Counted from the stretch's first letter, positions 6,971 to 64,000 are shown. The stretch is 64,000 bases of DNA from an archaeon (GCA_043797265.1 JAZDPV010000012.1:13875-77874), one strand, 5' to 3'. The notes: generated by a model not told the origin, from the letters alone. A program made the numbers and translations.

Positions 6971-9409
6971 ATGGGTGACAAATTTATAAAATGGCTCTCC
7001 GACCTTTCTAAAAAAGATTTAAAACTTGCCGGCGGCAAAGGCGCGAACCTCGGCGAAATCTTCAACGCAAAATTCCCGGTCCCGCAGGCATTCGTCATCA
7101 CAACCGACGCCTTCTTCCACTTCCTCAAAGAAACAAAACTCGAACAAAAAATAAAAGATATCCTGAACAAAATCGACGTCGACGAAACCCACGACCTCAC
7201 AAAAAAAGCAAAAGAAATAAGAGAATTAATCACCCAAGCCGAAATGCCGCAAAACCTAAAAAACGAAATCACCGAAGCCTACGACAACTTCAACGTCGAC
7301 CTCAATGAAATCCGAAACTCTCCCGGCGCACTCGCAATTCTGAAATCATCACGCGAATCAATCTTCGTCTCGGTCCGTTCCTCAGCAACGGCGGAAGACC
7401 AGGCAGACGCATCCTTCGCCGGCCAGCAATCATCCTACATCAACATCAAAGGCAACCAAGAATTAATCCAAAAAACAAAAGAATGTTTCGCCTCAATCTT
7501 CACCGCCCGCTCAATCTACTACCGAAAGAAAAAGGGATTCGAAGGACTCGTCGGCATCGCAGCAGTAGTCCAAAAAATGATAAACTCCGACAAATCCGGC
7601 GTCATGTTCTCAAAACACCCAGTCAAAAACAACAACGAAATTCTAATCGAAGCCGTCTTCGGTCAGGGCGAAGGCATCGTCTCCGGAAAAATAAAACCAG
7701 ACCAATACACCATCTCGCCAACCCTCGAAATATTAGAAGAAAAAATCTCGGACAAAAAAATCGCAATTATCAGAACCTCCGGCGGCCTCACAAAAACAAT
7801 CCAGCTAACCCCCGAAAAATCTAATCAAAGAGTCCTAAAGACCCACGAAATAAAACAACTCGCCGAATACGCAATCAAACTCGAAACCCATTACAAAAAA
7901 CCACAAGACATCGAATTCGCAATCGAAAACGAAAACATTTACATTCTCCAAACCCGGCCAATCACAACCTTAAAAAAACCAAATGAAGAAACAGCCGAAA
8001 TCGACGGACAACTGATAACTCAAGGAATGGCAGCGTCACCGGGAATCGCGTCAGGAATTGTCAAAATCGTGCACTCAATGGACGACCTCGACAAAATCAA
8101 AAAAGGCGACATCCTCGTGACAACAATGACAAACCCCGACATGGTCGTCTCAATGCAAAAAGCCACCGCAATCCTGACATCCGAAGGCGGAGTAACGTCG
8201 CACGCCGCAATCGTCTCACGAGAAATGGGAATCCCCGCAATCGTCGGCGCACAAAATGCGCTCGATATCTTGAAAGACGGCGACGAAATAACAATCGACG
8301 GTTTCCACGGAAAAGTCTTCAAGGGAAAAACACAAAACAAATCCGTCGAAATTTTCCCCGTCGTAGAAACAAAAACAAAAATCAAAGTCATGGTCGACCT
8401 CCCGCAATTCGCCGAGCGAGCCGCGAAAACAAAAGCCGACGGCATCGGACTAGTTAGACTCGAAGGATTAATATCAACCGGAGGCAAGCACCCCATCGCA
8501 TACGAAAAAGAAAACAATCTCGACAAATACCAAGCAATGCTCGCAAAAGGCCTCAGCGAAATCGCGGACACATTCATCGGCAAACCAATCTGGGTCCGAA
8601 CCTCCGACATACGAAGCGACGAATACTCAAACCTCGAAGGCGCACCAAAAGAAATCGAAAAAAACCCGATGCTCGGCGACCACGGAATCCGCTTTTCACT
8701 CAAGCACCCAAAAATCTTAAAAGCCGAACTCCTCGCAATAAAACAACTCGCCGACAAGGGCCACAAGTTCGGAGTAATGTTCCCGCAAGTAATCTCCGTC
8801 GACGAAATCAAAAAAGCAAAAAAAATTTTCGAAGAACTGCAAATAAACAACGTCGACTTCGGCGTCATGATTGAAACCCCCGCCGCAGTAATCCTAATCA
8901 AAGACATCTGCGAACAAAAAATCGACTTCATATCTTTCGGCACAAACGACCTCACTCAATACACCCTCGCAATCGACCGCGGCAACGAAGAAGTCCAAAA
9001 CATCTACGACGAAATGAACTGGGCAGTCCTGAAACAAATCTCAAGAGTAATCCGCGAATGCAAAAACCACAAAGTCGAAACCTCAATCTGCGGACAAGCC
9101 GGCTCAAAACCCGAAATGGTAGAATTCCTCATTAAGCACGGCATCGACTCAATCTCGGTAAACGCCGACGCTGCCAAATCAATTTCAGAACTCGTCCACA
9201 AACTCGAAACAGGAGAACCGCCAAAACCAATTGAAGCCGAAGAACCAACCAAACCAAAAATAAAATTGCAAGAAAAACCAAAAGGCATCCAAGAAGAAGT
9301 AGAACAATTAAAAGAAAAATACAACAAACAAGAAATCCCAAAACCAAAAAGCGACATCGAAATAATTGAATCAAACGAACCCCACAAAAAAGAAGACATC
9401 TTCAACTAA
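6971..9409 (+). CDS. ppsA: phosphoenolpyruvate synthase (pyruvate, water dikinase)
   Basis: It has GGKGANLGE, the phosphohistidine segment GGVTSHAAIVSREMGIPAIVG and the PEP-binding FISFGTNDLTQYTLAIDR. The C-terminal tail is K/E/P-rich. Confidence 0.9.
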   Translation: MGDKFIKWLSDLSKKDLKLAGGKGANLGEIFNAKFPVPQAFVITTDAFFHFLKETKLEQKIKDILNKIDVDETHDLTKKAKEIRELITQAEMPQNLKNEITEAYDNFNVDLNEIRNSPGALAILKSSRESIFVSVRSSATAEDQADASFAGQQSSYINIKGNQELIQKTKECFASIFTARSIYYRKKKGFEGLVGIAAVVQKMINSDKSGVMFSKHPVKNNNEILIEAVFGQGEGIVSGKIKPDQYTISPTLEILEEKISDKKIAIIRTSGGLTKTIQLTPEKSNQRVLKTHEIKQLAEYAIKLETHYKKPQDIEFAIENENIYILQTRPITTLKKPNEETAEIDGQLITQGMAASPGIASGIVKIVHSMDDLDKIKKGDILVTTMTNPDMVVSMQKATAILTSEGGVTSHAAIVSREMGIPAIVGAQNALDILKDGDEITIDGFHGKVFKGKTQNKSVEIFPVVETKTKIKVMVDLPQFAERAAKTKADGIGLVRLEGLISTGGKHPIAYEKENNLDKYQAMLAKGLSEIADTFIGKPIWVRTSDIRSDEYSNLEGAPKEIEKNPMLGDHGIRFSLKHPKILKAELLAIKQLADKGHKFGVMFPQVISVDEIKKAKKIFEELQINNVDFGVMIETPAAVILIKDICEQKIDFISFGTNDLTQYTLAIDRGNEEVQNIYDEMNWAVLKQISRVIRECKNHKVETSICGQAGSKPEMVEFLIKHGIDSISVNADAAKSISELVHKLETGEPPKPIEAEEPTKPKIKLQEKPKGIQEEVEQLKEKYNKQEIPKPKSDIEIIESNEPHKKEDIFN

Positions 9410-10177: not shown

Positions 10178-10205
10178 CTACCAACTAAAAACTACCAACT
10201 ACTTC
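10178..10205. repeat. CTA-type heptad array (4 units)
   Basis: The units are ctaccaa ctaaaaa ctaccaa ctacttc. The last CTA is the TAG stop of the 10199 gene. A hairpin gaaac-cgaaa-gtttc lies at 10150-10164. Confidence 0.9.
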
Positions 10206-11032
10206 CCCCTCTCATCAATTAATCTATCGACGAGCGCCGCCATCTCACCCAAAAACGCATCCGCCTTCTCAAACCAATCATCCAAATTTTTCCCCTTGAT
10301 AAAAGTCAAATTCCCGTGCACAATATCTTTCGCAACCAAATGCACCTCATCATAATACCCGACAAATTTCTTGTGCAACCTTCCCGTCTTCACAAAAGTT
10401 TCCTTCAAAACATCTGAAATATCCTCAGGCGACGACGGCATAACATCCGCCGCAATCAAAGCCGCGTGCGCCGCATCAACCATTGTCCAATAAAGCCCGT
10501 CGACAACCGCCAACATCGACTGCTTCGCCCGCGTCAAATGCCCCGGCGCCCTCTGCAACAAAGTATAAATCGATTCCGGCGTCGACCGAATCTTCCCGTC
10601 CCTCAGCAAAATCCGCAACGGATTAAAAAATCCGCCAAAATCAATCAACGCATCCCCATACCTCAAAACATTTATCACGACCGGATCGCCCCTCATCAAA
10701 TCCTCCCACCACGTCGACAACTTCACGCTATTAATATGTAAAGCCTTCGAATAAGGATTCGCCTTAATCAACTTCCCCAGCTCCTCCCGATACCACGCAA
10801 TCAGCTCCGCATCCCACTTCACCGAAACATCGTCGATAATCACGATAATATCAATATCCGATTCCGGCGTCGACACCCTCTTCGCCGACGACCCGAACAA
10901 AACAATCGACTTAACCATCTGGTCAAACTTCCCATAAACCTTCATCGCAAAATCCGCCGCAATCTCCCGCTCCCCGACAATCTCCAAAGTCGAAACCCCA
11001 ACCTTCTCAAAATCTTTTTTTTTCTTCACCAT
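10199..11032 (-). CDS. nucleotidyltransferase-domain protein (Pol-beta/MNT-like) with helical C-terminal domain
   Basis: LFGSSAKRVSTPESDIDIIVIIDD gives the GS...DxD motif. Confidence 0.7.
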   Translation of the reverse strand: MVKKKKDFEKVGVSTLEIVGEREIAADFAMKVYGKFDQMVKSIVLFGSSAKRVSTPESDIDIIVIIDDVSVKWDAELIAWYREELGKLIKANPYSKALHINSVKLSTWWEDLMRGDPVVINVLRYGDALIDFGGFFNPLRILLRDGKIRSTPESIYTLLQRAPGHLTRAKQSMLAVVDGLYWTMVDAAHAALIAADVMPSSPEDISDVLKETFVKTGRLHKKFVGYYDEVHLVAKDIVHGNLTFIKGKNLDDWFEKADAFLGEMAALVDRLIDERGK

Positions 11033-11071
11033 CTCTTATTAACTCACAGTAATTATATTTTATAAAGATGA

Positions 11072-11434
11072 CTATTTCTTCGAAACATAACTAATAAAAC
11101 CCATCAGCATCTTAGCAATCTCTCGCAACTCATTAGTTAATTCATCCAAAACATCCTCACTTAAATATCCAAATTCTTTCGCCACACACAACTGACTCTC
11201 GACTTCATTCACACTTCCCAAAGCAATATAAAAAAATTGAATAACATCTTTATCTGTCCTCCTCCCACAACCCTCTGCAATATTAGAAGAAATACTAACA
11301 ACCGCTCGTCTCAACTGCGAAGCCAATGCATAATTCTCCATCGAAGGAAACTTATCTATAAGTTCATAAATTCTCTTTGCAATTTTAACCGACCTCTTCC
11401 AAACATCTAATGTTCTGAATTCTCTCACCACCAA
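11072..11434 (-). CDS. four-helix-bundle protein (23S rRNA intervening-sequence protein family)
   Basis: LDVWKRSVKIAKRIYELIDKFP...YALASQLRRAVVSISSNIAEG...FFYIALGSVNEVESQL matches the family signature. Confidence 0.85.
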   Translation of the reverse strand: MVVREFRTLDVWKRSVKIAKRIYELIDKFPSMENYALASQLRRAVVSISSNIAEGCGRRTDKDVIQFFYIALGSVNEVESQLCVAKEFGYLSEDVLDELTNELREIAKMLMGFISYVSKK

Positions 11435-11471: not shown

Positions 11472-11573
11472 GTCCCTGAAACCTGAATTCTGAAACCTGA
11501 AACCTATTGCGAAGCAACCGTCCCTGAAACCTGAATTCTGAAACCTGAAACCTGAAAACGCAAAGCGTTTTCA
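11472..11573. repeat. mosaic: CTGA heptads, GAA-triloop hairpin, CTGA heptads, AAA-loop hairpin
   Basis: gtccctgaaacctgaattctgaaacctgaaacct occurs twice, separated by ttgcGAAgcaa (11507-11517). The block ends in gaaaacgcAAAgcgttttc (11554-11572), which overlaps the stop of the 11571 gene. Confidence 0.9.
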
Positions 11574-16338: not shown

Positions 16339-16396
16339 CTCTCCACAAAAGAATCCCAATATTTAAACATTCCTCAAAACCACAAACCGCACCCAA

Positions 16397-16507
16397 CCTC
16401 GCGCCACGCGAGGCGGCGAAGCCGCCAAAGATATGAGAACCGAAAGTTCTCCAATTTTCCCCTCCTCTCCCAACCTCTCCCATCCTCCCCCACCCTCGCG
16501 AAGCGCC
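16397..16507. repeat. multi-hairpin element with C-rich tail, copy 1 of 4
   Basis: cctcgcg-cca-cgcgagg, ggcggc-GAA-gccgcc, aaagatat, gagaac-cgaaa-gttctc, caattttcccc, about 40 nt of C/T tract, cgc-GAA-gcg. It lies between divergent promoters. Confidence 0.85.
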
Positions 16508-16579
16508 CCGACAACCGACCAGTAAACAACATAAAAACTTCACAGAAGTTTTTATATACTCAATTCCCCTCCGCTAATC

Positions 16580-19243: not shown

Positions 19244-19310
19244 AAAAAATCAAACCCGCGCCATTTTTAAATCTTTCTATTGTAACCACTAACTAATAAC
19301 ACCACAACCA

Positions 19311-19405
19311 CACGGACGGCGAAGCCGCCAAAGATATAACAACGAAGTTGCCCAAATTCTCTCCCCCGTCCTCCCCCACCCTCGCGAAGCGCAAAGCGTT
19401 TTGCG
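19311..19405. repeat. multi-hairpin element copy 2 (lacks first hairpin) plus terminal hairpin
   Basis: cggc-GAA-gccg, aaagatat, aacaac-GAA-gttgcc, caaattc, C-rich tract, cgc-GAA-gcg, then cgcaaa-gcgt-tttgcg, which abuts the stop at 19406. Confidence 0.8.
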
Positions 19406-22767: not shown

Positions 22768-22800
22768 TCCGTGTTAGTCCGTGTTAGTCCGTGTGCTATT
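22768..22800. repeat. decamer array ending in GCTATT
   Basis: tccgtgttag tccgtgttag tccgtgtgct att. On the - strand this is AATAGCACACGGAC TAACACGGAC TAACACGGA followed by T6. Confidence 0.9.
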
Positions 22801-22825: not shown

Positions 22826-23560
22826 TCATCTCATCTCCTTAAGTTTTCTCAAAACAAAATCCGAAAACTCAATCGACTTCTCCGTCGCTGATTTAATATT
22901 AGCATAACATAAACCGCACGGCGAAATAACTCCATTAACCCAATCAGGAATTTCAGAAACCTTCTTCTTCACAACCATTTTCGCAACACTCGGAAAATTC
23001 GCACGCATCCCACCCCCAGCCCCGCAACAAATCGCGTCCTTTCGATTCAATTCAAACTCAAAAACTTTTCCACCCAATCTCTCAATCACCTCACGCGGCT
23101 CCTCATAAATCCCGCTATACCGCCCAAGATGACACGGGTCGTGATACGCAACCAACTCCCTCTCCCTATCCTCGCCCCTCCATTTAATATTTTTCTTCTT
23201 CAACGCATTCAGAATCGCAACCGTCGCGTGCTCAACCTCAATATCCCAACCCTTAACAAACTCCGGATAAATTTCTTTGAAAGTATGATAACACGACGGA
23301 CAATTAGTAATAATTTTCTTAATCCTATTTTTCTTAAACAAATCAAAATTCTTATTCGCCAATTTCCGCGCATCCTTCCGATAACCCGCATTCAAAACCG
23401 GCAACCCGCAACAAACCTCATCCATCGGCAACATCACAAAATCAATCCCCAACCGATTAAAAATCTCCTTGTAATTCTCCAACTCCGTCGACAAAACCCC
23501 CCTCGTCAAACATCCCGGATAATACAACGTCTTCTTCCCAAACAATCCAAACAACCCCAT
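22826..23560 (-). CDS. CCG-domain (cysteine-rich) Fe-S oxidoreductase subunit, GlcF/LutA C-terminal-like
   Basis: YYPGC, CCG, YHDPCHLGR and CCGAGGG are present. The start was chosen at MGLFGLFGKK because the upstream part of the ORF track crosses a repeat element. Confidence 0.75.
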   Translation of the reverse strand: MGLFGLFGKKTLYYPGCLTRGVLSTELENYKEIFNRLGIDFVMLPMDEVCCGLPVLNAGYRKDARKLANKNFDLFKKNRIKKIITNCPSCYHTFKEIYPEFVKGWDIEVEHATVAILNALKKKNIKWRGEDRERELVAYHDPCHLGRYSGIYEEPREVIERLGGKVFEFELNRKDAICCGAGGGMRANFPSVAKMVVKKKVSEIPDWVNGVISPCGLCYANIKSATEKSIEFSDFVLRKLKEMR

Positions 23561-23584
23561 ATCAAAACCCTCCTCCACACACAC

Positions 23585-23680
23585 CGCGCGACGCGACGAA
23601 GCCGCCAAGATATGGCAACGAAGTTGCCCAAATAGCGAAGCCGTCGAAGATATGAGAGCGAAGCTCTCCAAATTTTCCCT
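23585..23680. repeat. multi-hairpin element copy 3 (module duplicated, no C-rich tail)
   Basis: cgcg-cga-cgcg, cgac-GAA-gccg, aagatat, ggcaac-GAA-gttgcc, caaat, agcgaagccgtcg, aagatat, gagagc-GAA-gctctc, caaattttccc. Confidence 0.8.
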
Positions 23681-40858: not shown

Positions 40859-40893
40859 TCCTGCGTTAGTCCTGCGTTAGTCCGCGTGCTATT
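40859..40893. repeat. 11-nt array ending in GCTATT, overlapping the gyrA stop
   Basis: tcctgcgttag tcctgcgttag tccgcgtgct att. On the - strand this reads GAG TAA TAGCACGCGGAC TAACGCAGGAC TAACGCAGGA. Confidence 0.9.
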
Positions 40894-43813: not shown

Positions 43814-43899
43814 GGCAACGAAGTTGCCTTAACTTAAACCTGACGCCTGACGCCTGACGCCTGACGCCTGATTTATGAAAATCTTTGATTTTCATAAAT
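43814..43899. repeat. mosaic: GAA-triloop hairpin, four CTGACGC heptads, 13-bp hairpin overlapping the gyrB stop
   Basis: ggcaac-GAA-gttgcc (43814-43828), ctgacgc x4 plus ctgattt (43840-43874), and atttatgaaaatc-ttt-gattttcataaat (43871-43899). Confidence 0.9.
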
Positions 43900-45793
43900 C
43901 CACCTCCGCCTTGTCAGCATTCTGCTCAATAAACTCCCGACGCGGCGCAACCGCATCTCCCATCAACAAACTAAAAGTCTCATCCGCCTCGACCGCGTCC
44001 TCGACCGAAACCTGTTTCAACCGCCTCGTCTTCGGATTCATCGTCGTCGACCACAACTGCTCATCATTCATCTCGCCCAAACCCTTGAACCGGCTAACCT
44101 CGCCCTTCCCAATCTCAACCAACTTCTTCTTTAACTCATCCCCCGAATAAACATAATACTCCTTGCTCCCTTTCTTGATTTTGTAAAACGGCGCAACCGC
44201 AACAAAAATATGCCCGCCCTCAATCAACGCCGGCACATAACGATAAAACAAAGTAAGCAACAACGCCTTGATATGCTGCCCATCAACATCCGCATCCGTC
44301 ATAATTATAATCTTATTATATCTCAACTTCGAAATATCAAACGAATCACCGACGCCCGTCCCAATTGCCGTAATCAAATTCGAAATCTGCTCCGACCCCA
44401 GCGCCTTCACCGGATTCGACTTCTCAACATTCAAAACTTTTCCACGTAAAGGCAAAATCGCCTGCGTCTCCCTGTCTCGCCCGCCCTTCGCCGTCCCGCC
44501 AGCAGAATCCCCTTCGACAACATACAACTCCGTCGTCTCTCGCCTCTTGCTCGAACAATCCGCCAACTTCCCCGGCAAACCCGAACCAACACTCAACGCA
44601 TTCTTCCGACGAACCAACTCCTTCGCTTTCTTCGCCGCCTCCCTCGCCTTCAACGCCGAACTCGCCTTCGCCAAAATCACCTTCGCAACCGCCGGATTCT
44701 CCTCGAGAAAATCAGTCAACGCCGAACTCGCCATCGAATCAACAATCCCTTTAATCTCCCCATTCCCCAGCTTCGTCTTCGTCTGCCCCTCAAATTGCGG
44801 CTCCGACATCTTCAACGAAATCACAGCGGTAATCCCCTCGCGAACATCCTCGCCCGACAACTTCTGTCCATTCTTGAAAGCCCCCGTCTTCGCCCCATAA
44901 TCATTAATCGCCCTCGTCAACGCCGTCTTCAACCCCGCGACATGCGTCCCACCCTCAATTGTATTTATCGTGTTCACAAATCCCTGAATATTCTCATTAT
45001 AAGAATCCGAATATTGAATCGCAACCTCAACCACCGTCTTCCCCTCTTCTCTCTTGAAATAAATCGGCTTCGCGTGAATCGGCTTCCTCGTCTTGTTCAA
45101 CCAGCTAACAAACTCGACCAACCCGCCGCTATAACAAAAAGAACTAACCTTCTCTTCCTCTCTAAAATCACTAAACACAATTTTCAACCCCGCATTCAAA
45201 AAACAAGTTTCCCTAAACCTCGTCGCCAAAGTCTTGTAATCAAAATCAATCACGGAAAAAATCGCGCCATCAGGAATAAAACTAACCTTCGTCCCATGCT
45301 TCCCCGCGTCCGCCTTCCCGACAACCTCAACATCCCTCTTCGGCTTCCCAATCACATACTCCTGCGCATAAACCTTCCCGTCCTTCGTCACCTCAACCCT
45401 CATAAACTTCGACAAAGCCGAAACAACAGAAATACCGACGCCATGCAAACCGCCCGAAACAGCATACGCCTTGTTGTCAAACTTCCCGCCCGCGTGCAAC
45501 TTCGTGACAATAATTTCCATCGCCGACTTCTTGTAAATCGGATGCTCATCAACCGGCATCCCACGCCCGTCATCCTCAACAACAACCGACCCGTCCTTAT
45601 TCAACGTAACATTTATCGTCGTCGCAGCCCCAGCCATGTGCTCATCAACCGAATTATCGACAACCTCATAAACCAAATGATGCAAACCATACTTATCAGT
45701 AGAACCAATATACATTCCCGGTCTTTTCCGCACCGCCTCAAGTCCTTCCAAAACCGTAATATCTTTCGCAGAGTAATTATCGTCAGCCATCAT
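43892..45793 (-). CDS. gyrB: DNA gyrase subunit B
   Basis: GLEAVRKRPGMYIG and GLHGVG, the Toprim segment LYVVEGDSAGG, and the C-terminal PRREFI. Confidence 0.95.
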   Translation of the reverse strand: MMADDNYSAKDITVLEGLEAVRKRPGMYIGSTDKYGLHHLVYEVVDNSVDEHMAGAATTINVTLNKDGSVVVEDDGRGMPVDEHPIYKKSAMEIIVTKLHAGGKFDNKAYAVSGGLHGVGISVVSALSKFMRVEVTKDGKVYAQEYVIGKPKRDVEVVGKADAGKHGTKVSFIPDGAIFSVIDFDYKTLATRFRETCFLNAGLKIVFSDFREEEKVSSFCYSGGLVEFVSWLNKTRKPIHAKPIYFKREEGKTVVEVAIQYSDSYNENIQGFVNTINTIEGGTHVAGLKTALTRAINDYGAKTGAFKNGQKLSGEDVREGITAVISLKMSEPQFEGQTKTKLGNGEIKGIVDSMASSALTDFLEENPAVAKVILAKASSALKAREAAKKAKELVRRKNALSVGSGLPGKLADCSSKRRETTELYVVEGDSAGGTAKGGRDRETQAILPLRGKVLNVEKSNPVKALGSEQISNLITAIGTGVGDSFDISKLRYNKIIIMTDADVDGQHIKALLLTLFYRYVPALIEGGHIFVAVAPFYKIKKGSKEYYVYSGDELKKKLVEIGKGEVSRFKGLGEMNDEQLWSTTMNPKTRRLKQVSVEDAVEADETFSLLMGDAVAPRREFIEQNADKAEVDL

Positions 45794-45923: not shown

Positions 45924-46094
45924 TTAATTCTTCTTCCCCTTCTTAACCCACTTAACTTTCTTGCTCAACCGCCCCATCGCAAAATTTTTCCGGCACTTCG
46001 ACCCGCAAAAATACTTCACGCTCCCATCTTTCTGCACAACCGTCACGCCCCGCGGAAACTCATACCCTCTCTTGCAAAAACTACAAACTGGCAT
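45924..46094 (-). CDS. rpl24e: 50S ribosomal protein L24e (56 aa)
   Basis: Hand translation gives MPVCSFCKRGYEFPRGVTVVQKDGSVKYFCGSKCRKNFAMGRLSKKVKWVKKGKKN. It is below the ORF-track cutoff. Confidence 0.85.
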   Translation of the reverse strand: MPVCSFCKRGYEFPRGVTVVQKDGSVKYFCGSKCRKNFAMGRLSKKVKWVKKGKKN

Positions 46095-46353
46095 TTATCC
46101 TCCTTCTGACTGATAAAAAATAATTATAATCTATATTCCCCCCCTCACCCGCGCAAGGTCTAGCAATAACCTCACTCGAATAAACTACTCCGTATCCTTC
46201 CCATAAAAAATTTTTAAAACCTATTGCTCTTCCAATATCTCCCCCAAAAGGAATTTCAACCAACTGAACCTCACTTCCTAACCTATCATCAACCATTTTA
46301 ATCAAAGCATCATTCAAGGAAGCACAAACCATCTCTTCAAAACTTTTTCCCAT
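46081..46353 (-). CDS. hypothetical protein inserted between rps28e and rpl24e
   Basis: GGGGGAGAG lies 5-12 nt upstream of the ATG. The 3' end overlaps the rpl24e start by 14 nt. No motif was recognised. Confidence 0.4.
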   Translation of the reverse strand: MGKSFEEMVCASLNDALIKMVDDRLGSEVQLVEIPFGGDIGRAIGFKNFLWEGYGVVYSSEVIARPCAGEGGNIDYNYFLSVRRRINASL

Positions 46354-46394
46354 TAATCTCTCCCCCTACAATTTACACAACCCGCCAAGTCACA

Positions 46395-46476
46395 CTTCCA
46401 GCGAAGCGGACTTCCAGCGAAGCGGACTTCCAACTTCCAGCGAAGCGGACTGATTAAAATGCTCCGCATTTTAATC
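46395..46476. repeat. 16-nt CTTCC-AGCGAAGCGGA units (three, plus one 7-nt partial) and a 10-bp hairpin containing the rps28e stop
   Basis: cttccagcgaagcgga x2, cttccaa, cttccagcgaagcgga, then gattaaaatg-ctccg-cattttaatc (46452-46476). Confidence 0.9.
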
Positions 46477-47314: not shown

Positions 47315-48406
47315 TTACCGCCAGGAATCACAAATTACTTCATCCGTCCTCTCCCTCGGCGAAATATCAACCTTATCCAAATCCCAATAAACTCCTGACG
47401 CCTGATTTCTGACGCCTGATTTCTGCGCCGCGCGCCACATCTTCAACCCCAAATACCCAATCATCCCCGCATTATCAACCAGCAAACTCCTCGGCGGCAC
47501 AAATAACTTGCAACCTCGCTCCTCGCACATAATCCTGCACATTTCCTGCAACCGCGAATTACAAGCAACCCCGCCGCCCAACAAAAGTTCTTTCTTTCCA
47601 GTATGCGCCAACGCCCTCTCCGCAACCTCAACCAGCATCGCAAACACAACCTCCTGCATCGAATACGCAATCTTAAATTTATCCTCGCCCCTCTCAATCA
47701 AATTCTTAATCTTCGTCTGCATCCCCGCAAACGCAACATCCATCCCCTTCACCGAATACGGCAACTCCAAAATCTCAACCCATTTTCTTTTAGATTCGTG
47801 TCCATCTGTGTTCATTCGTGAGCAATTATTTTCTTTCAATGTCCGTGAGATATACTCCTCCGCCATCTTCTCAATCTTAGGCCCAGCAGGAAATCCAAGT
47901 TTCATAAATCTCCCAACCGTATCAATAAAATTCCCAACTCCCAAATCCAACGTCTCACCAAAAACCCGATACTTCCCCGCCTCGTAAGCAATCACCTGAG
48001 TATTCGCTCCCGACGCATAAAGCATAACCGGATCCCTCGCCCCGACACTCTCCCCAATTTCCAAATGTGCAACACAATGATTAACACAAACAACCGGTAT
48101 ACCAAGCCGCCCCGCAATCTTCTTCACAAATTCCATCCCCTCCAAAAGACACGGGGCCAACCCCGGCGCATTCGAAAACGCAACAGCGTCGATATTTTCC
48201 TCAGAAATCCCTGCCTCATCCAAAGCCCGCTTATACAAACCATCGCCAACTTTCCTATGATGCTTCCGAACTTCCAAAGGAATCATCCCGCCTTCTTCAG
48301 TAAAATATGAATCCTTAACATTAGAAAGTATATTCCCTTCTATATCAACAACCGCCACACCAAACGTATGCGCCGTACTCTCAACCCCCAAAATAAACTT
48401 TCCCAT
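47315..48406 (-). CDS. kae1: tRNA N6-adenosine threonylcarbamoyltransferase Kae1
   Basis: ILGVESTAHTFGVAV, VNHCVAHLEIG and SGANTQV. It contains two repeat-encoded inserts. Confidence 0.92.
   Translation of the reverse strand: MGKFILGVESTAHTFGVAVVDIEGNILSNVKDSYFTEEGGMIPLEVRKHHRKVGDGLYKRALDEAGISEENIDAVAFSNAPGLAPCLLEGMEFVKKIAGRLGIPVVCVNHCVAHLEIGESVGARDPVMLYASGANTQVIAYEAGKYRVFGETLDLGVGNFIDTVGRFMKLGFPAGPKIEKMAEEYISRTLKENNCSRMNTDGHESKRKWVEILELPYSVKGMDVAFAGMQTKIKNLIERGEDKFKIAYSMQEVVFAMLVEVAERALAHTGKKELLLGGGVACNSRLQEMCRIMCEERGCKLFVPPRSLLVDNAGMIGYLGLKMWRAAQKSGVRNQASGVYWDLDKVDISPRERTDEVICDSWR
47395..47429. repeat. CTGA heptad/14-mer array inside kae1
   Basis: ctgacgc ctgattt ctgacgc ctgattt ctgcgcc, read as AAQKSGVRNQASGV. 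Confidence 0.85.
47796..47825. repeat. decamer array inside kae1
   Basis: tcgtgtccat ctgtgttcat tcgtgagcaa, read as CSRMNTDGHES. Confidence 0.8.
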
Positions 48407-48478: not shown

Positions 48479-49522
48479 ATGGTGATAGAAAAAGAAAAAA
48501 CATTTTTGGATTTTATAAAATTAGTCTCACCCGGAACGCTTCTAAGAAATGTAATCGACGACCTAATCCGCTCAGACCTCGGCGGCACAATTGTATTCAA
48601 CAGCCCCGAACTCTATTCCCAAAATATCGCCGAGGGCGGCTTCCGAATCAACTGCCGATTCACACCGCAAAAACTTTTCGAACTCTGCAAAATGGACGCC
48701 GCCGTGATAATATCTCCCGACCTAAAAAGAATTCTCCAGGCAAACGTCACGCTGACCCCGGACTCGTCAATACACACAACCGAAACCGGCACGCGACACA
48801 AATCAGCCGAACGAACCGCGAAACAAGCCCACACATTCATCATCGCAATTTCCGAACGACGAAAAAAAACAACCCTCTATTACGACACCTCTCGATACTA
48901 TCTCAAATCAATAGACGAACTAATCAGAAATATCAGCTCAACTCTTCAGCTCCTCGAAAAACAAAGAGAAATCTTAAACGAAAACACAGCGAACCTCAAC
49001 ATCCTCGAAATGTCCGAAATCGTCTCCATCAGCGACGTCTGCCAAGTCATCCAAAGAACCGAAATGATTCAAAAAATATCAAACTCAATCAAGCGAAATT
49101 TCACCGAACTCGGAAAAGAAGGCAACATCATGCACATGCGATACCGCGAACTTCTAAAAGACGTCGAAAAAACCGAAAACGATATTCTCCGAGACTACTC
49201 AACCCTCCCGCTACGACGCTCCAAAACTCTCCTCTCAAACCTGACCTTCGACGGACTCCAAGACCTCGACTCAATCGCAAGACTAATCATAGACAAACCC
49301 CTTGAAAAAATCATCGCCCCAAAAGGTTTCAGGTTCCTGTCACACCTCACCCTCTCAGAAAAAGAAATCTCTCAAATAATAAAACAACATCACGACATAG
49401 ACAAAATAATAAAAACAGAACCGACCGACCTTGAACCAATACTAAAAAATCGCGCCGACACAATCCATAAAGAAATCAGAAACCTCCGCGAACAAGTCCT
49501 GAACGGAAAAACAATTTGCTAA
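48479..49522 (+). CDS. DisA-like protein (diadenylate-cyclase-type DAC domain plus linker/HhH-like region)
   Basis: LCKMDAAVIIS (DGA replaced by DAA) and ETGTRHKSAERTAKQ (RHR replaced by RHK). The overall length and layout match DisA. Confidence 0.65.
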   Translation: MVIEKEKTFLDFIKLVSPGTLLRNVIDDLIRSDLGGTIVFNSPELYSQNIAEGGFRINCRFTPQKLFELCKMDAAVIISPDLKRILQANVTLTPDSSIHTTETGTRHKSAERTAKQAHTFIIAISERRKKTTLYYDTSRYYLKSIDELIRNISSTLQLLEKQREILNENTANLNILEMSEIVSISDVCQVIQRTEMIQKISNSIKRNFTELGKEGNIMHMRYRELLKDVEKTENDILRDYSTLPLRRSKTLLSNLTFDGLQDLDSIARLIIDKPLEKIIAPKGFRFLSHLTLSEKEISQIIKQHHDIDKIIKTEPTDLEPILKNRADTIHKEIRNLREQVLNGKTIC

Positions 49523-50556
49523 TGCTAACCAAAACTCAACTCAACGAAATCAGAAACCATTTAGAAACCTCACAAAACCCCCTCTTCTTTTTCGACAACG
49601 ACGCCGACGGACTCTGCGCATTCCTAATTCTCAGACGAGCAATCAACCGCGGCAAAGGCGTCGCAATAAAATCATTCCCCGACCTGAAAAAACAATACCT
49701 GAAAAAAGTCGACGAACTCAACCCCGACGCGATATTCATCCTCGACAAAGCCGAACTAAGCAAAGAATTCGCCGAAACAATAGAACAAAAAAACATCCCG
49801 CTAATCTGGATTGACCATCACGAAACAAAAACCCCGGAAGAAATCATCAAAAAAACTTTCTACTACAACTCGCTCCCGTCCGCCGAACCAACTACCTACA
49901 TCGCACAAAAAATTTTCAACCGCCAAGAAGACCTCTGGCTCGCAGTCATCGGATGCATCAGCGACGCGTATATGCCAGACTTCGCAAACCAATTCGCAAA
50001 ACAAAACCCAGAATTATTAAACCCAAACATCGAACCCCTCGACGCGCTCCACTCAACAGAAATCGGAAAAATAATCCGCCTGCTAAATTTCGGGCTCATG
50101 GACACGACGACAAATGTCCTCACAATGATAAAATATCTTTCCAAAGCAAACAACGCCCAAGACATCCTCGAAGAAAACCACAGCACAAAACAACTCCACA
50201 AAAGATACTCCCAGCTCAACGGATTCCTAAACAAACAAGTCGAAAAAGCCGAATCAAACTTCGACCCAAAATCAAAAGCCCTTTTCTTCTCTTACGCCGG
50301 CAACACATCAATGTCATCTGAAATCGCAAACAAACTTTACTACAACCATAAAGACAAAATAATCGTCGTCGCATTCAAGCGCCCAGAAAAAATCAACATC
50401 TCAATCCGCGGAGACAACGCACTCAAAATAACAAAACAAGCAATCGCAAACATCGAAGACGCAACCGGCGGCGGACACGAAAAAGCAACCGGCGCAATGA
50501 TTCCCGTCGACAAATTCGAGCAATTCAAAAAAAATATCAAGCAATTCACAACTTAG
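49522..50556 (+). CDS. DHH/DHHA1-family phosphoesterase (NrnA/RecJ-like)
   Basis: FFFDNDADGLCA, IWIDHHE and GGGHEKATGA. There is a TAATG overlap with the DisA-like gene. Confidence 0.75.
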   Translation: MLTKTQLNEIRNHLETSQNPLFFFDNDADGLCAFLILRRAINRGKGVAIKSFPDLKKQYLKKVDELNPDAIFILDKAELSKEFAETIEQKNIPLIWIDHHETKTPEEIIKKTFYYNSLPSAEPTTYIAQKIFNRQEDLWLAVIGCISDAYMPDFANQFAKQNPELLNPNIEPLDALHSTEIGKIIRLLNFGLMDTTTNVLTMIKYLSKANNAQDILEENHSTKQLHKRYSQLNGFLNKQVEKAESNFDPKSKALFFSYAGNTSMSSEIANKLYYNHKDKIIVVAFKRPEKINISIRGDNALKITKQAIANIEDATGGGHEKATGAMIPVDKFEQFKKNIKQFTT

Positions 50557-62161: not shown

Positions 62162-64000
62162 TGCTCCCTGTCCAAAACACTCCCCCTCTTGTTAATCCTC
62201 GGCCTCCCACTCTCTTTATCTTTTCTCAAAGTAATATCCAAACTTTTCAACAATTCACCAACCCCATCTTCAAAATTCCTAACCTCACTCGCCTCACAAA
62301 CCCCAACTCTTTTCTTTAATTCGTGTTCATTCGTGTTCATTCGTGAGCCCTTACTTTCTCCGTCCATCCGCGAGCCGACCTCAGAAAAATTAATAATCAA
62401 ATCCGCCAAATACGAAACCAACAACAAATCGTGCTCGACGACAAACGCCGTCTTTCCCCTCTCGACCATCACATCCTTAATCGCCTTCGCAACCAAAATC
62501 CTCTCCTCAACATCCAGATAAGCCGACGGCTCGTCCAAAAAATAAACATCCGCGTCCTTCGCCAAACATCTCGCAACGCTAAATCTCTGCAACTCCCCGC
62601 CAGACAATTCCCTCAATTTCTTCCCAACCAAAACCCCAAGATTAAACACCGACGACAATTTCTTATTTATCTTCTCCCTAAAAACAATATCCCGAACAAA
62701 CTCCTCGCTCTCGCTAAACAAATACTGCGACTTATAAGAAATATCCAAACCTAAATCAAGTCCGTGTTTGTCCGTGTTTGTCCGTGTGCTATTTTTCTTA
62801 CCACCAAGTCGTTCAGATATCTCCACATCACAAGAACAATTTTCATCGAGCTCGCCCACCAGCGCCCGCACAAATGACGTCTTCCCCGTTCCATTCTTTC
62901 CCAAAATCCCAATCACATGATTCTCCCTAATTTCCCCACCCTTCACATTTAACTCAAACCCCGAATCAAATCTCAAATTAAAATCAGGCCACTCCCCGAT
63001 TTTTCCCCCAGACACCGACGCATTTTTCGTAAAATTAAAATTCAATTCCTTATCCCGAATCAATAAATTCTCCTCTTTCAAAAATCCCTTCAGATAAGCA
63101 TTAACACCTTCCCTCGAACTCTTGACCCCACTCACCGTCCCGAAAACTCCCTGCGCCCCATAAAACACATTTAAATAATCCGTCAAATAATCCAGCACCA
63201 ACAAATCATGCTCGACGACAATCACCGTCTTATCTCGACCAATCTCCTTGATAAAATCCGAAACTCTCAATCTCTCTCCAATATCCAAAAACGCCAACGG
63301 CTCGTCGAAAAAATAAATATCAGCGTCGCCCAAACTCGCCGCCAAAATCGCAACTCTCTGCAACTCACCACCGCTAAGCTTGTCCATCCTATTCCCCAAA
63401 ATATTCTCGACATTCAACTTCTTCGCTAATTCCCTAATTTCTTTTTTGTCCCCACGATTCTCCAACAACTCCATCACACCAATGTCCTTCGCCAACACCG
63501 ACAAATTCTGCGGCTTATACGAAACCTTCTTGTCTCCAAGTAAATCAAAATATTTCTGCAACTCACTCCCCTTGAATTTCCCAACATCAATTTCTATATT
63601 TCCAGACAAAATTTTTACAGCAGTCGATTTCCCAATCCCATTCCTCCCGAGCAAACCCAAAACTTTCCCAACCTTAGGAATAGGCAAACCATACAACGCA
63701 AACCCATTCGCCCCATATCGATAAACCAAATCTTCCTCACTCACCGACGGCAAATTCACAATATCAATCGCACCCAACGGACATCGCTTCACACAAATCG
63801 CGCACCCAACACAACTTTTCTCATCAATAACACACTTGCCCGATGAAGGTGGCACCTTGGTGCCCTCTATAGAGGGTATGCCGCGTGCGGCGCTACCAAT
63901 AACGACGCAACTATCAGACTCCTTCTTCTCAACCGGACAATATTTCTTACACTCGCGCCCGCACACCGTCGGCTTACATTTCTCCCGATGAACAATCGCC
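62131..64000 (-). CDS. abce1: ABCE1 (RNase L inhibitor homolog); 5' end lies outside the window
   Basis: An Fe-S domain (CPVE..., CVGCAICVKRCP) and two ABC domains (GLLGRNGIGKST, GILGKNGTGKTS). The frame stays open to base 64000. Confidence 0.92.
   Translation of the reverse strand, partial: AIVHREKCKPTVCGRECKKYCPVEKKESDSCVVIGSAARGIPSIEGTKVPPSSGKCVIDEKSCVGCAICVKRCPLGAIDIVNLPSVSEEDLVYRYGANGFALYGLPIPKVGKVLGLLGRNGIGKSTAVKILSGNIEIDVGKFKGSELQKYFDLLGDKKVSYKPQNLSVLAKDIGVMELLENRGDKKEIRELAKKLNVENILGNRMDKLSGGELQRVAILAASLGDADIYFFDEPLAFLDIGERLRVSDFIKEIGRDKTVIVVEHDLLVLDYLTDYLNVFYGAQGVFGTVSGVKSSREGVNAYLKGFLKEENLLIRDKELNFNFTKNASVSGGKIGEWPDFNLRFDSGFELNVKGGEIRENHVIGILGKNGTGKTSFVRALVGELDENCSCDVEISERLGGKKNSTRTNTDKHGLDLGLDISYKSQYLFSESEEFVRDIVFREKINKKLSSVFNLGVLVGKKLRELSGGELQRFSVARCLAKDADVYFLDEPSAYLDVEERILVAKAIKDVMVERGKTAFVVEHDLLLVSYLADLIINFSEVGSRMDGESKGSRMNTNEHELKKRVGVCEASEVRNFEDGVGELLKSLDITLRKDKESGRPRINKRGSVLDREQKLKNHWAIF
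62321..62377. repeat. decamer array and a degenerate second copy inside ABCE1
   Basis: tcgtgttcat tcgtgttcat tcgtgagccc ... tccatccgcgagccg, read as GSRMDGESKGSRMNTNEHE. Confidence 0.85.
62761..62793. repeat. decamer array ending in GCTATT inside ABCE1
   Basis: tccgtgtttg tccgtgtttg tccgtgtgct att, read as KNSTRTNTDKHG. Confidence 0.9.
63851..63891. repeat. three abutting palindromes inside the ABCE1 Fe-S domain
   Basis: ggcaccttggtgcc, ccctctatagaggg and gccgcgtgcggc, read as GSAARGIPSIEGTKVPP. Confidence 0.85.

Follow-up and report, generated by a model that had tools for sequence, protein, structure and literature searches.

Strand-polarised short DNA cassettes with C-GAA-G mini-hairpins in spacers and housekeeping genes of a Pacearchaeota-like archaeon

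In the 64,000-nt stretch of archaeal DNA analysed here (GCA_043797265.1, JAZDPV010000012.1:13875-77874; hereafter the window), the spacer between rps28e and a small open reading frame (ORF) followed by rpl24e, all on the - strand, contains a short tandem array with the heptamer GCGAAGC (46394..46449, + strand). It consists of two copies of ACTTCCAGCGAAGCGG, a bare heptad (ACTTCCA) and one further 16-mer. On the C-rich (+) strand the array abuts the 5′ side of an 11-bp hairpin (gattaaaatgc-TCC-gcattttaatc, 46452..46476), which overlaps the rps28e stop codon, is the sole structure in the centroid fold and is conserved in L001, a locus from one of the closest relatives; the orthologous spacer of L001 carries GCGAAAA x3.9 instead of the array. 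The small ORF (46081-46353, 90 aa, without a Pfam match) overlaps the rpl24e start by 14 nt, and about 300 nt around it are missing from L001, where rps28e and rpl24e stand 67 nt apart. GCGAAGC is not free-standing in this DNA: it is part either of a 16-nt tandem unit, ACTWCCAGCGAAGCGG (arrays at 46394, 56600 and 62108), or of a dispersed composite element. These sites belong to a set of cassettes that are DNA-level, strand-polarised insertions without a detectable gene of their own, and that sit in spacers, often 5′ of a longer hairpin at a gene 3′ end, and in surface loops of housekeeping proteins.

The ORFs of the window encode archaeal housekeeping proteins (S28e, L7Ae, L24e, aIF5B, aIF2-gamma, Kae1, ABCE1 and several aminoacyl-tRNA synthetases) together with gyrase and DisA, and the source is a tiny, uncultured, Pacearchaeota-like DPANN archaeon. 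Its gyrB product has an identical counterpart in an NCBI 'MAG: archaeon' (MAG, metagenome-assembled genome), and the relatives of that protein are labelled Pacearchaeota, Woesearchaeota or Nanoarchaeota. The + strand is strongly asymmetric in composition (A 22176, C 19136, T 14634 and G 8054 in 64,000 nt; that is, 34.6% A, 29.9% C, 22.9% T and 12.6% G), with a GC skew of -0.16 to -0.61 across all 4-kb windows despite genes on both strands. Extreme skew (0.37-0.52) also marks the closest relatives fetched (L001-L006, L009 and L013; GC 38-43%), and most other Pacearchaeota loci lie at 0-0.3; no switch of GC skew was found in any fetched locus. This composition resembles that of the vertebrate mitochondrial light strand and of genomes of the order UBA1400 of the candidate phyla radiation (CPR) (PMC7143001). 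In those bacteria a whole-chromosome G/C strand disparity has been described and unidirectional replication proposed (PMC7143001); as here, one strand has about 30% C and 13-15% G regardless of gene direction. That report concerns bacteria and describes no repeat cassettes, whereas the disparity here is that of an archaeal subclade and goes together with the arrays.

The + strand of the window has 17 copies of GCGAAGC and the - strand has four. An earlier note on this DNA, made from the sequence, had listed 16 of the + strand positions, all of them correct; the further copy is at 11317. The four - strand copies (10522, 15417, 45067 and 61640) are isolated and lie within coding sequence, and all array units with GCGAAGC or ACTWCCAG (the latter eight on +, none on -) are direct, and the note, too, had noticed no tandem reverse complements. 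Dinucleotide-preserving shuffles yield 6.5 +/- 2.5 copies on both strands, and none of 100 shuffles reaches 21. The expectation of about four copies given in the note is of the right order of magnitude, but the raw fold-excess overstates the case, because the copies depend on one another (three 16-nt arrays account for seven and four copies of the composite element for eight, with about 13 separate occurrences at 9 loci) and because CG-containing words are generally over-represented, many CG-containing 7-mers on the + strand also exceeding their mononucleotide expectation 10-20 fold.

Of the triloops in perfect hairpins with a stem of 4 bp or more, GAA exceeds its frequency in shuffles the most (13 observed, 2.9 in shuffles), and among GC-containing hairpins with a stem of at least 5 bp on the C-rich strand of the extreme-skew clade, GAA loops outnumber TTC loops by 11 to 1. 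Only about six distinct stems are involved, and C-G closes the loop in every case. What is conserved is the core C-GAA-G and not GNA in general, so that the GNA-triloop class originally proposed for these sites has to be narrowed. The exceptional stability claimed for the mini-hairpins in single-stranded DNA agrees with the literature for this core, in which GCGAAGC-type and CCGAAGG-type DNA mini-hairpins are exceptionally stable and nuclease-resistant (PMC13037366, PMC3201870).

The composite element spans 50-115 nt, is built from hairpins with C-GAA-G loops and is present in five copies in 64 kb, at 16395, 19310, 23597 and 53760. The first copy (16395..16510, +), in a divergent intergenic region, comprises the hairpin cctcgcg-CCA-cgcgagg, ggcggcGAAgccgcc, AAAGATAT, gagaaccGAAagttctc, a C/T tract and cGCGAAGCg; the second lies at 19310..19395 (+), two tandem copies of the core with a 40-nt period occupy 23597..23673 (+), and the copy at 53760..53870 (+) is in the divergent region upstream of proS, where L001 has a conserved core at the corresponding position. 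In hairpin 2 of the element, pairing is kept through changes on both sides in three of six pairs (a small sample of six copies), and the loop and closing C-G pair never vary among the copies compared. On the - strand the C/T tract is a G-run tract (GGGTGGGGGAGGATGGGAGAGG..., 16455-16497 and 53825-53858), a candidate G-quadruplex or i-motif between divergent promoters.

Related layouts occur in other spacers, exactly as the earlier note had described them. Between the ABCE1 stop and the argS start (both genes on -), a mosaic at 62053..62124 (+) reads ACTTCCAG + tcgacAAAgtcga, ACTTCCAG + aaaatcAAGgatttt and ACTACCAG + cGAAg; a 14-bp hairpin (62128..62160) that overlaps the ABCE1 stop codon lies 3′ of it on the C-rich strand. 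The 3′ spacer of gyrB (43814..43900, +) contains ggcaacGAAgttgcc, CCTGACG x4.7 (perfect over 33 nt) and a 14-bp hairpin overlapping the gyrB stop codon. A further block (11472..11573, +) has CCTGAAA-type heptads x4.4, ttgcGAAgcaa, heptads x5 and the 9-bp hairpin tgaaaacgcAAAgcgttttca. This block is adjoined (10199-11434) by a bAvd-like four-helix-bundle gene (PF05635) and a nucleotidyltransferase gene, with no reverse transcriptase seen nearby. Despite the bAvd-like gene, an origin of the 11.5-kb arrays related to CRISPR or to diversity-generating retroelements was rejected: neither a reverse transcriptase nor a template/variable repeat pair was found.

The GCGAAGC sites are the visible part of a much larger, lineage-restricted set of short perfect arrays, whose units repeat every 7, 10, 14 or 16 nt and most of which span 26-34 nt. 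Read on the C-rich strand, the units returned by Tandem Repeats Finder are heptads (CCTGAAA, CCTGACG, CCTGAAT, CTGAAAC, CCTACCN and TCTATTA), 10- and 11-mers (TCCGTGTTAG, TCCTGCGTTAG, GTCCGTGTTT and ATTCGTGTTC) and also 14-mers. The 10/11-mers form a family (TCCGYGTTNN x2.7, usually ending TCCGTGT-GCTATT; 22768-22794, 40859-40887, 62319-62345, 62760-62787 and about 47790-47820) in which the TCCGYGT cores are one helical turn apart, and whose members lie at two gene 3′ ends and within ABCE1 and kae1. Its array at 22768..22794 (+; TCCGTGTTAG x2.7) lies directly 3′ of the stop of the - strand gene 22826-23671, and that at 40859..40887 (+; TCCTGCGTTAG x2.7) directly 3′ of the gyrA stop codon. A 28-nt array of the same family with a different unit is present in a different organism (L095, 4723-4750 in C-rich strand numbering).

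Perfect runs of period 7 number 16 in 164 kb of the extreme-skew clade (9.8 per 100 kb), 5 in 51 kb of metagenome contigs that carry the 16-mer module (9.7 per 100 kb) and 2 in 1.06 Mb of other Pacearchaeota (0.19 per 100 kb). The periods of perfect runs are 7, 10, 12, 13, 14 and 16 in the extreme-skew clade and 6, 7, 8, 9, 12, 13 and 15 in other Pacearchaeota, the latter mostly multiples of three, as coding repeats would give. Since those other Pacearchaeota are nearly devoid of period-7 runs and their periods are mostly multiples of three, the signature of the clade is not protein-driven. An origin by chance or composition was likewise rejected: the 16-mer has equal numbers of G and C (five each per 16 nt), and about 0.03 perfect period-7 runs would be expected in the 164 kb in which 16 are seen.

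The association between arrays and neighbouring hairpins is polar. Hairpins with a perfect stem of 6 bp or more are found no farther than 40 nt 3′ (C-rich strand) of 8 of 27 clade arrays and, with the same limits, 5′ of 3 of 27; these three are one orthologous hairpin. The background is 2.4% of random 44-nt windows. Among array-associated hairpins, those at rps28e, gyrB and ABCE1 overlap the stop codons of these - strand genes, and the one in argS is coding.

Many arrays lie within genes. At least 10 window arrays and five of seven distinct metagenome loci are in-frame inside Pfam-confirmed coding sequences; in the window, arrays are read through in frame in kae1, proS (two sites), argS, ABCE1 (two sites) and gluRS, and the 16-mer ACTWCCAGCGAAGCGG is open in all six frames. 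The kae1 array (47394..47429, +, in a - strand gene; CTGACGCCTGATTT x2.6) would give the in-frame product AAQKSGVRNQASG. A 27-nt stretch of it (47399-47425) is missing from L001, and among 21 homologues compared, Kae1 has four loop sites with extra residues only in members of the extreme clade. The L001 kae1 itself carries a 105-nt mosaic insert ('CTCTTTAG + gcGAAgc', 'CTCTTTAG + aaaatttcTCCgaaatttt', 'CTTTAG + caaagca') that follows the same grammar as the window mosaics. The two proS arrays (52308..52333, +, CCTGAAT x3.7; 52791..52824, +, AATTCTGACACCTG x2.4, at which site L001 has CGACCTG x4.3 and L005 TTCTGTC x4.6) sit within two loop insertions of ProS, which the window shares with L001 and L005 and which L006, L013 and more distant relatives lack (seven homologues). 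In argS (60604..60657, +), CTGAAAC x4.3 is followed by a 10-bp hairpin, tcgtcgattt-TTCA-aaatcgacga, that is also coding. Two ABCE1 insertions relative to the Pyrococcus structure 3j15_B, of about 22 and 23 residues, sit exactly around the arrays at 62319..62345 (+; ATTCGTGTTC x2.7) and 62760..62787 (+; GTCCGTGTTT x2.8), respectively. In the alignment of the window with L001 (86% nucleotide identity), indels of at least 5 nt in the compared genes coincide with arrays and hairpin mosaics. Because these indels and the loop insertions in Kae1, ProS, IleRS and ABCE1 coincide with arrays, the cassettes are insertions, and their peptides (for example SEADYQRSGLPAKR and KSASLEV) are predicted to be translated in surface loops. 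The comparison of loci across related genomes that had been proposed earlier reveals indels at arrays, and orthologous sites that hold different units as well.

The array in ileS differs in that the reading frame breaks there. It consists of three 16-nt units, ACTTCTAGCGAAGCGG followed by ACTACCAGCGAAGCGG x2 (56595..56647, +), and immediately 3′ of it is the hairpin tttttcc-GAA-ggaaaaa (56649..56665), part of an insertion of about 25 aa; compared with 13 homologues, these extra residues of IleRS lie in the loop preceding the invariant WTTTPW motif. The gene (55967-58857) is split into ORFs of 226 and 706 aa, with the break exactly at the 3 x 16-nt array: the upstream frame runs into a TAA (56645), a TAG where the array starts closes the downstream frame, and a fourth unit would fuse both into one 969-aa protein. 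A bulge-helix-bulge mini-intron was rejected, as the requisite geometry is missing, and so was programmed frameshifting, as no slippery heptamer precedes the stop codon; the break is more simply explained by a change of one 16-nt unit. The second ORF has its first start codon downstream of the conserved WTTTPWTLP motif, and no protein identical to either ORF is among the 120 best database matches listed. Once about 20 close archaeal relatives are set aside, IleRS is best matched (45-50% identity) by sequences from CPR, Spirochaetota, Lentisphaerota and other bacteria, a similarity that suggests a bacterial-type ileS acquired by transfer.

Since one extra unit restores the ileS frame, the array could also be a collapsed repeat, and arrays in general could be artefacts of assembly or sequencing in repeat-rich MAG contigs. 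That is very improbable. Identical arrays appear without gaps in independent assemblies from different projects and samples, they are shorter than a sequencing read, and host genes remain open through them.

The same module is found in other organisms. An exact search for the 19-mer ACTWCCAGCGAAGCGGACT in JGI metagenome contigs returned 15 loci, of which 13 (7 distinct) have 34-43% GC and a shared architecture, in which ACTTCCA, ACTTCCC or ACTACAA heptads are followed by GCGAAGCGG and a longer hairpin comes 3′ of it; the remaining two are GC-rich and match by chance. In five metagenome loci a long ORF with a clear Pfam identity spans the module, which is sense to the genes for GatD (L085, with four units) and a LeuRS-type class I ligase (L088) and antisense to those for Dus (L087), UvrD (L094) and UvrB (L095). 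A sixth such ORF, sense to the module, is Cys-rich, 180 aa long and without a Pfam match (L086). Read in different frames and strands, the module DNA gives NYQRSGL, KLPAKRT or KSASLEV. Counting ileS, the module is sense in four interrupted genes and antisense in three, and it lies on the C-rich strand at six of the seven distinct metagenome loci and all three window loci, or 9 of 10. Its orientation follows the DNA strand and not the gene, and because the 16-mer is equal in G and C, base composition cannot explain this orientation. A viral origin found no support: the 19-mer is absent from IMG/VR, and matches to (CCTGACG)3 in that collection are unrelated GC-rich phages. L092 is otherwise identical to L088 and lacks 61 nt of conserved LeuRS coding sequence (L088 745-805), probably an assembly error or a deletion variant that is not array-related.

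The strand-fixed, DNA-level feature postulated in the earlier note is thus supported, and the contrary case that it had named, modules following gene orientation, is at odds with the 4:3 mixture inside genes. Its wording that orientation is fixed whatever the direction of the flanking gene holds for the window in part: one locus (ileS) bears it out, and the other eight flank - strand genes or divergent pairs. The latter arrangement would fit elements that act in the RNA of - strand transcripts, as terminators, 3′-end stabilisers, intercistronic processing sites or small RNAs. Also compatible with such a role, hairpins overlapping the stop codons of rps28e, gyrB and ABCE1 are directly followed by arrays, and all composite copies lie 40-150 nt upstream of a - strand gene start. 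Nevertheless, a function in RNA is quite improbable, given that the same module is both sense and antisense within coding sequences, that cassettes are predicted from the ORFs to be translated in frame, that two composite copies lie between divergent promoters, and that neither GAA nor UUC triloops are favoured in RNA. At the gathering threshold Rfam 15 detected only two tRNAs in the window, and even at E<=1 the modules gave no match; a known RNA family was rejected on these grounds. C/D-box small RNAs were discarded too, as the C box is missing, although CTGA occurs in many heptads, and the L001 arrays lack CTGA; opposite-strand UUCG tetraloops misfit in register.

Strand-specific orientation that is independent of genes, hairpins integral to the module, the same 19-mer at unrelated loci of different organisms, and a composite element dispersed in five copies over 64 kb are features that might be expected of non-autonomous transposable modules, either similar to repetitive extragenic palindromes (REPs) and their mosaics (BIMEs) or derived from IS200/IS605, moved as single-stranded DNA by an HUH enzyme encoded elsewhere and inserted into one replication strand. 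IS200/IS605 elements reportedly insert with a replication-strand bias, and a corresponding bias is seen here, with 9 of 10 loci on the C-rich strand and the direction of replication taken from the skew. However, elements derived from IS200/IS605 carry subterminal hairpins at each end and insert 3′ of a fixed tetra- or pentanucleotide, whereas the 5′ flanks of the 10 module loci have no shared target sequence, a hairpin is present on the 3′ side only, and neither a conserved target tetranucleotide nor a terminal pair of subterminal hairpins is found in the flanks. No Y1, HUH or RAYT domain was detected in the 50 window ORFs scanned against Pfam, and no reverse transcriptase was seen in the window; a tblastn search of 1.33 Mb of related loci with an approximate IS608 TnpA sequence, a weak test, gave nothing below E=0.1. 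Units are tandem and direct, down to arrays of 19 nt, and orthologous sites stay filled with different units, unlike an empty-site polymorphism. Mobility of this kind is therefore considered unlikely.

The likeness to REP/BIME elements drawn in the earlier note is not borne out either. REPs are imperfect palindromes of 20-40 nt that lie outside genes and share a conserved head, typically arranged in inverted pairs (BIMEs) and associated with a RAYT gene. Both kinds of repeat are small, abundant and hairpin-forming, both occur in spacers near gene ends, and a mechanism involving single-stranded DNA is plausible for both. In the cassettes, by contrast, the units are direct and 7-16 nt long, without a GTAG-like or other REP-type head, and only the 7-nt GCGAAGC of the 16-mer is palindromic; inverted pairs never occur (ACTWCCAG, 8:0), and many copies are in-frame in coding sequence.

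The arrays are stable over short evolutionary distances and replaced over longer ones. Between near-identical populations from different samples, none of the arrays shows an indel: over 14.9 kb, L001 and L002 have 22 substitutions between them and no gaps, and L087/L089 and L086/L090/L096/L098 behave alike. At about 14% nucleotide divergence the same site holds a different perfect unit at the same length, as in the gyrB 3′ spacer (CCTGACG x4.7 in the window, AGCGACC x4.6 in L001, AACAGCG x4.1 in L005) and likewise in the two proS loops. Units within one genome are slightly more alike than units of different genomes (2.84 vs 3.34 mismatches; permutation p = 0.04, three genomes, suggestive only).

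This likeness within genomes could point to functional signals in single-stranded DNA, either priming sites, comparable to the single-strand initiation (ssi) hairpins of phage G4 and RSF1010 or to mitochondrial OriL, or polar arrays read by a fast-evolving DNA-binding factor, on a chromosome assumed to be replicated very asymmetrically. The mitochondrial-like composition, the G/C disparity with proposed unidirectional replication in CPR (PMC7143001), the spacing of TCCGYGT by one helical turn, and the invariant loop and closing pair with compensatory stem changes in the composite element are consistent with such signals. Origins of phages G4 and St-1 and RSF1010 ssiA have hairpins with GCGAAAGC- or CCGAAGG-type cores, including primase-start mini-hairpins of the G4 type and the ssiA core CCGAAGG, that lie on one DNA strand and act as DNA (PMC13037366). 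The identical core CCGAAGG is found here at 53800 and 56649, a lead and not a sign of membership, in that ssi hairpins occur at one or two sites per replicon and have a dedicated primase, whereas the cassettes number dozens, many of them in genes and with tandem arrays. The stable C-GAA-G form is moreover on the C-rich strand, whereas the other strand would be the exposed one if a G-rich composition is the mark of the single-stranded template. Units vary widely in sequence among loci, cassette spacing in the window is irregular, with none in 24-43.8 kb, and insertions of about 10 aa in essential enzymes would be costly when spacers could serve. A signalling function is accordingly a doubtful prospect.

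The explanation favoured here, tentatively and at somewhat less than even chances, is that the GCGAAGC sites are lineage-specific short DNA cassettes (about 20-110 nt, perfect tandem units plus C-GAA-G mini-hairpins) spread by hairpin-assisted slippage or template switching. The leading strand is usually G-rich, and the C-rich strand, with a composition usual for a lagging strand, would be the one synthesised discontinuously. Nascent Okazaki ends or 5′ flaps bearing C-GAA-G may fold into nuclease-resistant mini-hairpins, and re-annealing out of register within short direct repeats could then duplicate whole units. Stalled ends might switch by microhomology to similar arrays elsewhere, so that modules would be copied, preferentially where synthesis stalls beside a hairpin. 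Selection would retain only copies open in the frame of the host gene; gain or loss of one 16-nt unit shifts the frame, as in ileS. Hairpin-driven repeat expansion, which involves Fen1-resistant flaps and replication slippage and is seen as duplications in yeast rad27 mutants, would be similar in its gain of whole units on one strand, its stable hairpin within the unit and its dependence on fork orientation. Known expansions are nonetheless length-variable arrays at one locus, whereas the arrays described here are bounded in length and stable between populations, with identical units at unrelated loci.

Several observations weigh against slippage and template switching. Under simple slippage, copy numbers should vary and some arrays should be long, yet heptad arrays are 19-20 nt or 26-33 nt, never longer, 10-mer arrays are 27-28 nt, and near-identical populations lack array indels. 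The different same-length units at orthologous sites of three relatives look more like rewriting than drift, and the identical 19-mer in unrelated genes of different organisms would need a copying step. We infer the direction of replication only from the rule of the G-rich leading strand. Nearest-neighbour DNA folding predicts only the long terminal hairpins and misses the 2-bp mini-hairpins, whose stability is taken solely from the literature. The proposed mechanism does not account for the limit on length at about 30 nt, for the constancy of arrays between populations or for the replacement of units at fixed sites. It could be, although this seems rather improbable, that the arrays are written and not slipped, with a trans-acting template or reiterating enzyme installing periodic tracts of about 30 nt at hairpin-marked sites on one replication strand and rewriting them periodically; candidate writers are a primase or primase-polymerase repeating unit-length products of 7-10 nt, or a telomerase-like reverse transcriptase. 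Writing would explain the bounded length whatever the period, the perfect and differing arrays at orthologous sites, the genome-specific look of the families and the identical modules in unrelated genes.

Of known systems, the palindromic elements of Rickettsia (RPEs) are the closest functional analogue of the cassettes. RPEs are palindromic repeats of about 100-150 bp with a conserved encoded peptide, inserted in-frame in unrelated housekeeping genes (PMC10969869). Both are short, hairpin-capable DNA without a gene of its own, inserted in-frame many times in unrelated housekeeping genes, where it adds peptides to protein loops (here as predicted translation), and also found between genes; judged from ORFs, such insertions exist here in kae1, proS, argS, ABCE1, ileS and the genes for GatD, Dus, LeuRS, UvrD and UvrB. 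RPEs are bacterial and have no reported strand polarity, whereas the cassettes are archaeal, 19-110 nt long and built of tandem units of 7, 10, 14 or 16 nt plus mini-hairpins, with a fixed strand in DNA of extreme GC skew; frames and peptides differ among them, and they bear no relation to Rickettsia. No description of strand-fixed cassettes in DPANN archaea was found in the literature. Should the description hold, dozens of DNA repeats of non-triplet period are tolerated in the essential genes of an archaeal lineage, all polarised to one strand, which would make them an archaeal counterpart of the selfish in-gene repeats of Rickettsia. They would also offer a natural system for the effect of a very stable mini-hairpin (C-GAA-G) on replication in vivo, and a handle on extreme strand asymmetry in ultra-small genomes of DPANN archaea and CPR bacteria. 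In practice, cassettes inflate or frameshift conserved marker genes in MAGs, as ileS does here, and create lineage-specific loop insertions that could pass for adaptive features.

Other parts of the window have features of their own. The segment 34165-40066 is a low-GC island (32-37% GC) without cassettes, encoding a restriction-methylase fusion of the Eco57I/MmeI type (974 aa) and a protein of 931 aa that weakly matches a bacterial Ig-like domain, and is consistent with recent acquisition. A block of small + strand ORFs at 82-6978 includes genes for a HerA/FtsK-like ATPase (1489-3456), a methyltransferase, tRNA-Val(AAC) and tRNA-Lys(UUU), the anticodon AAC being unusual in archaeal tRNA-Val; it has classical hairpin-plus-T-run sites at 5450-5500 and 6780-6810 and may be an integrated element. 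At 48479-50556 the gene for DisA (c-di-AMP synthase) adjoins that for a DHH/DHHA1 phosphoesterase, with gyrA and gyrB close by, and the synteny of both pairs is kept across the relatives fetched.

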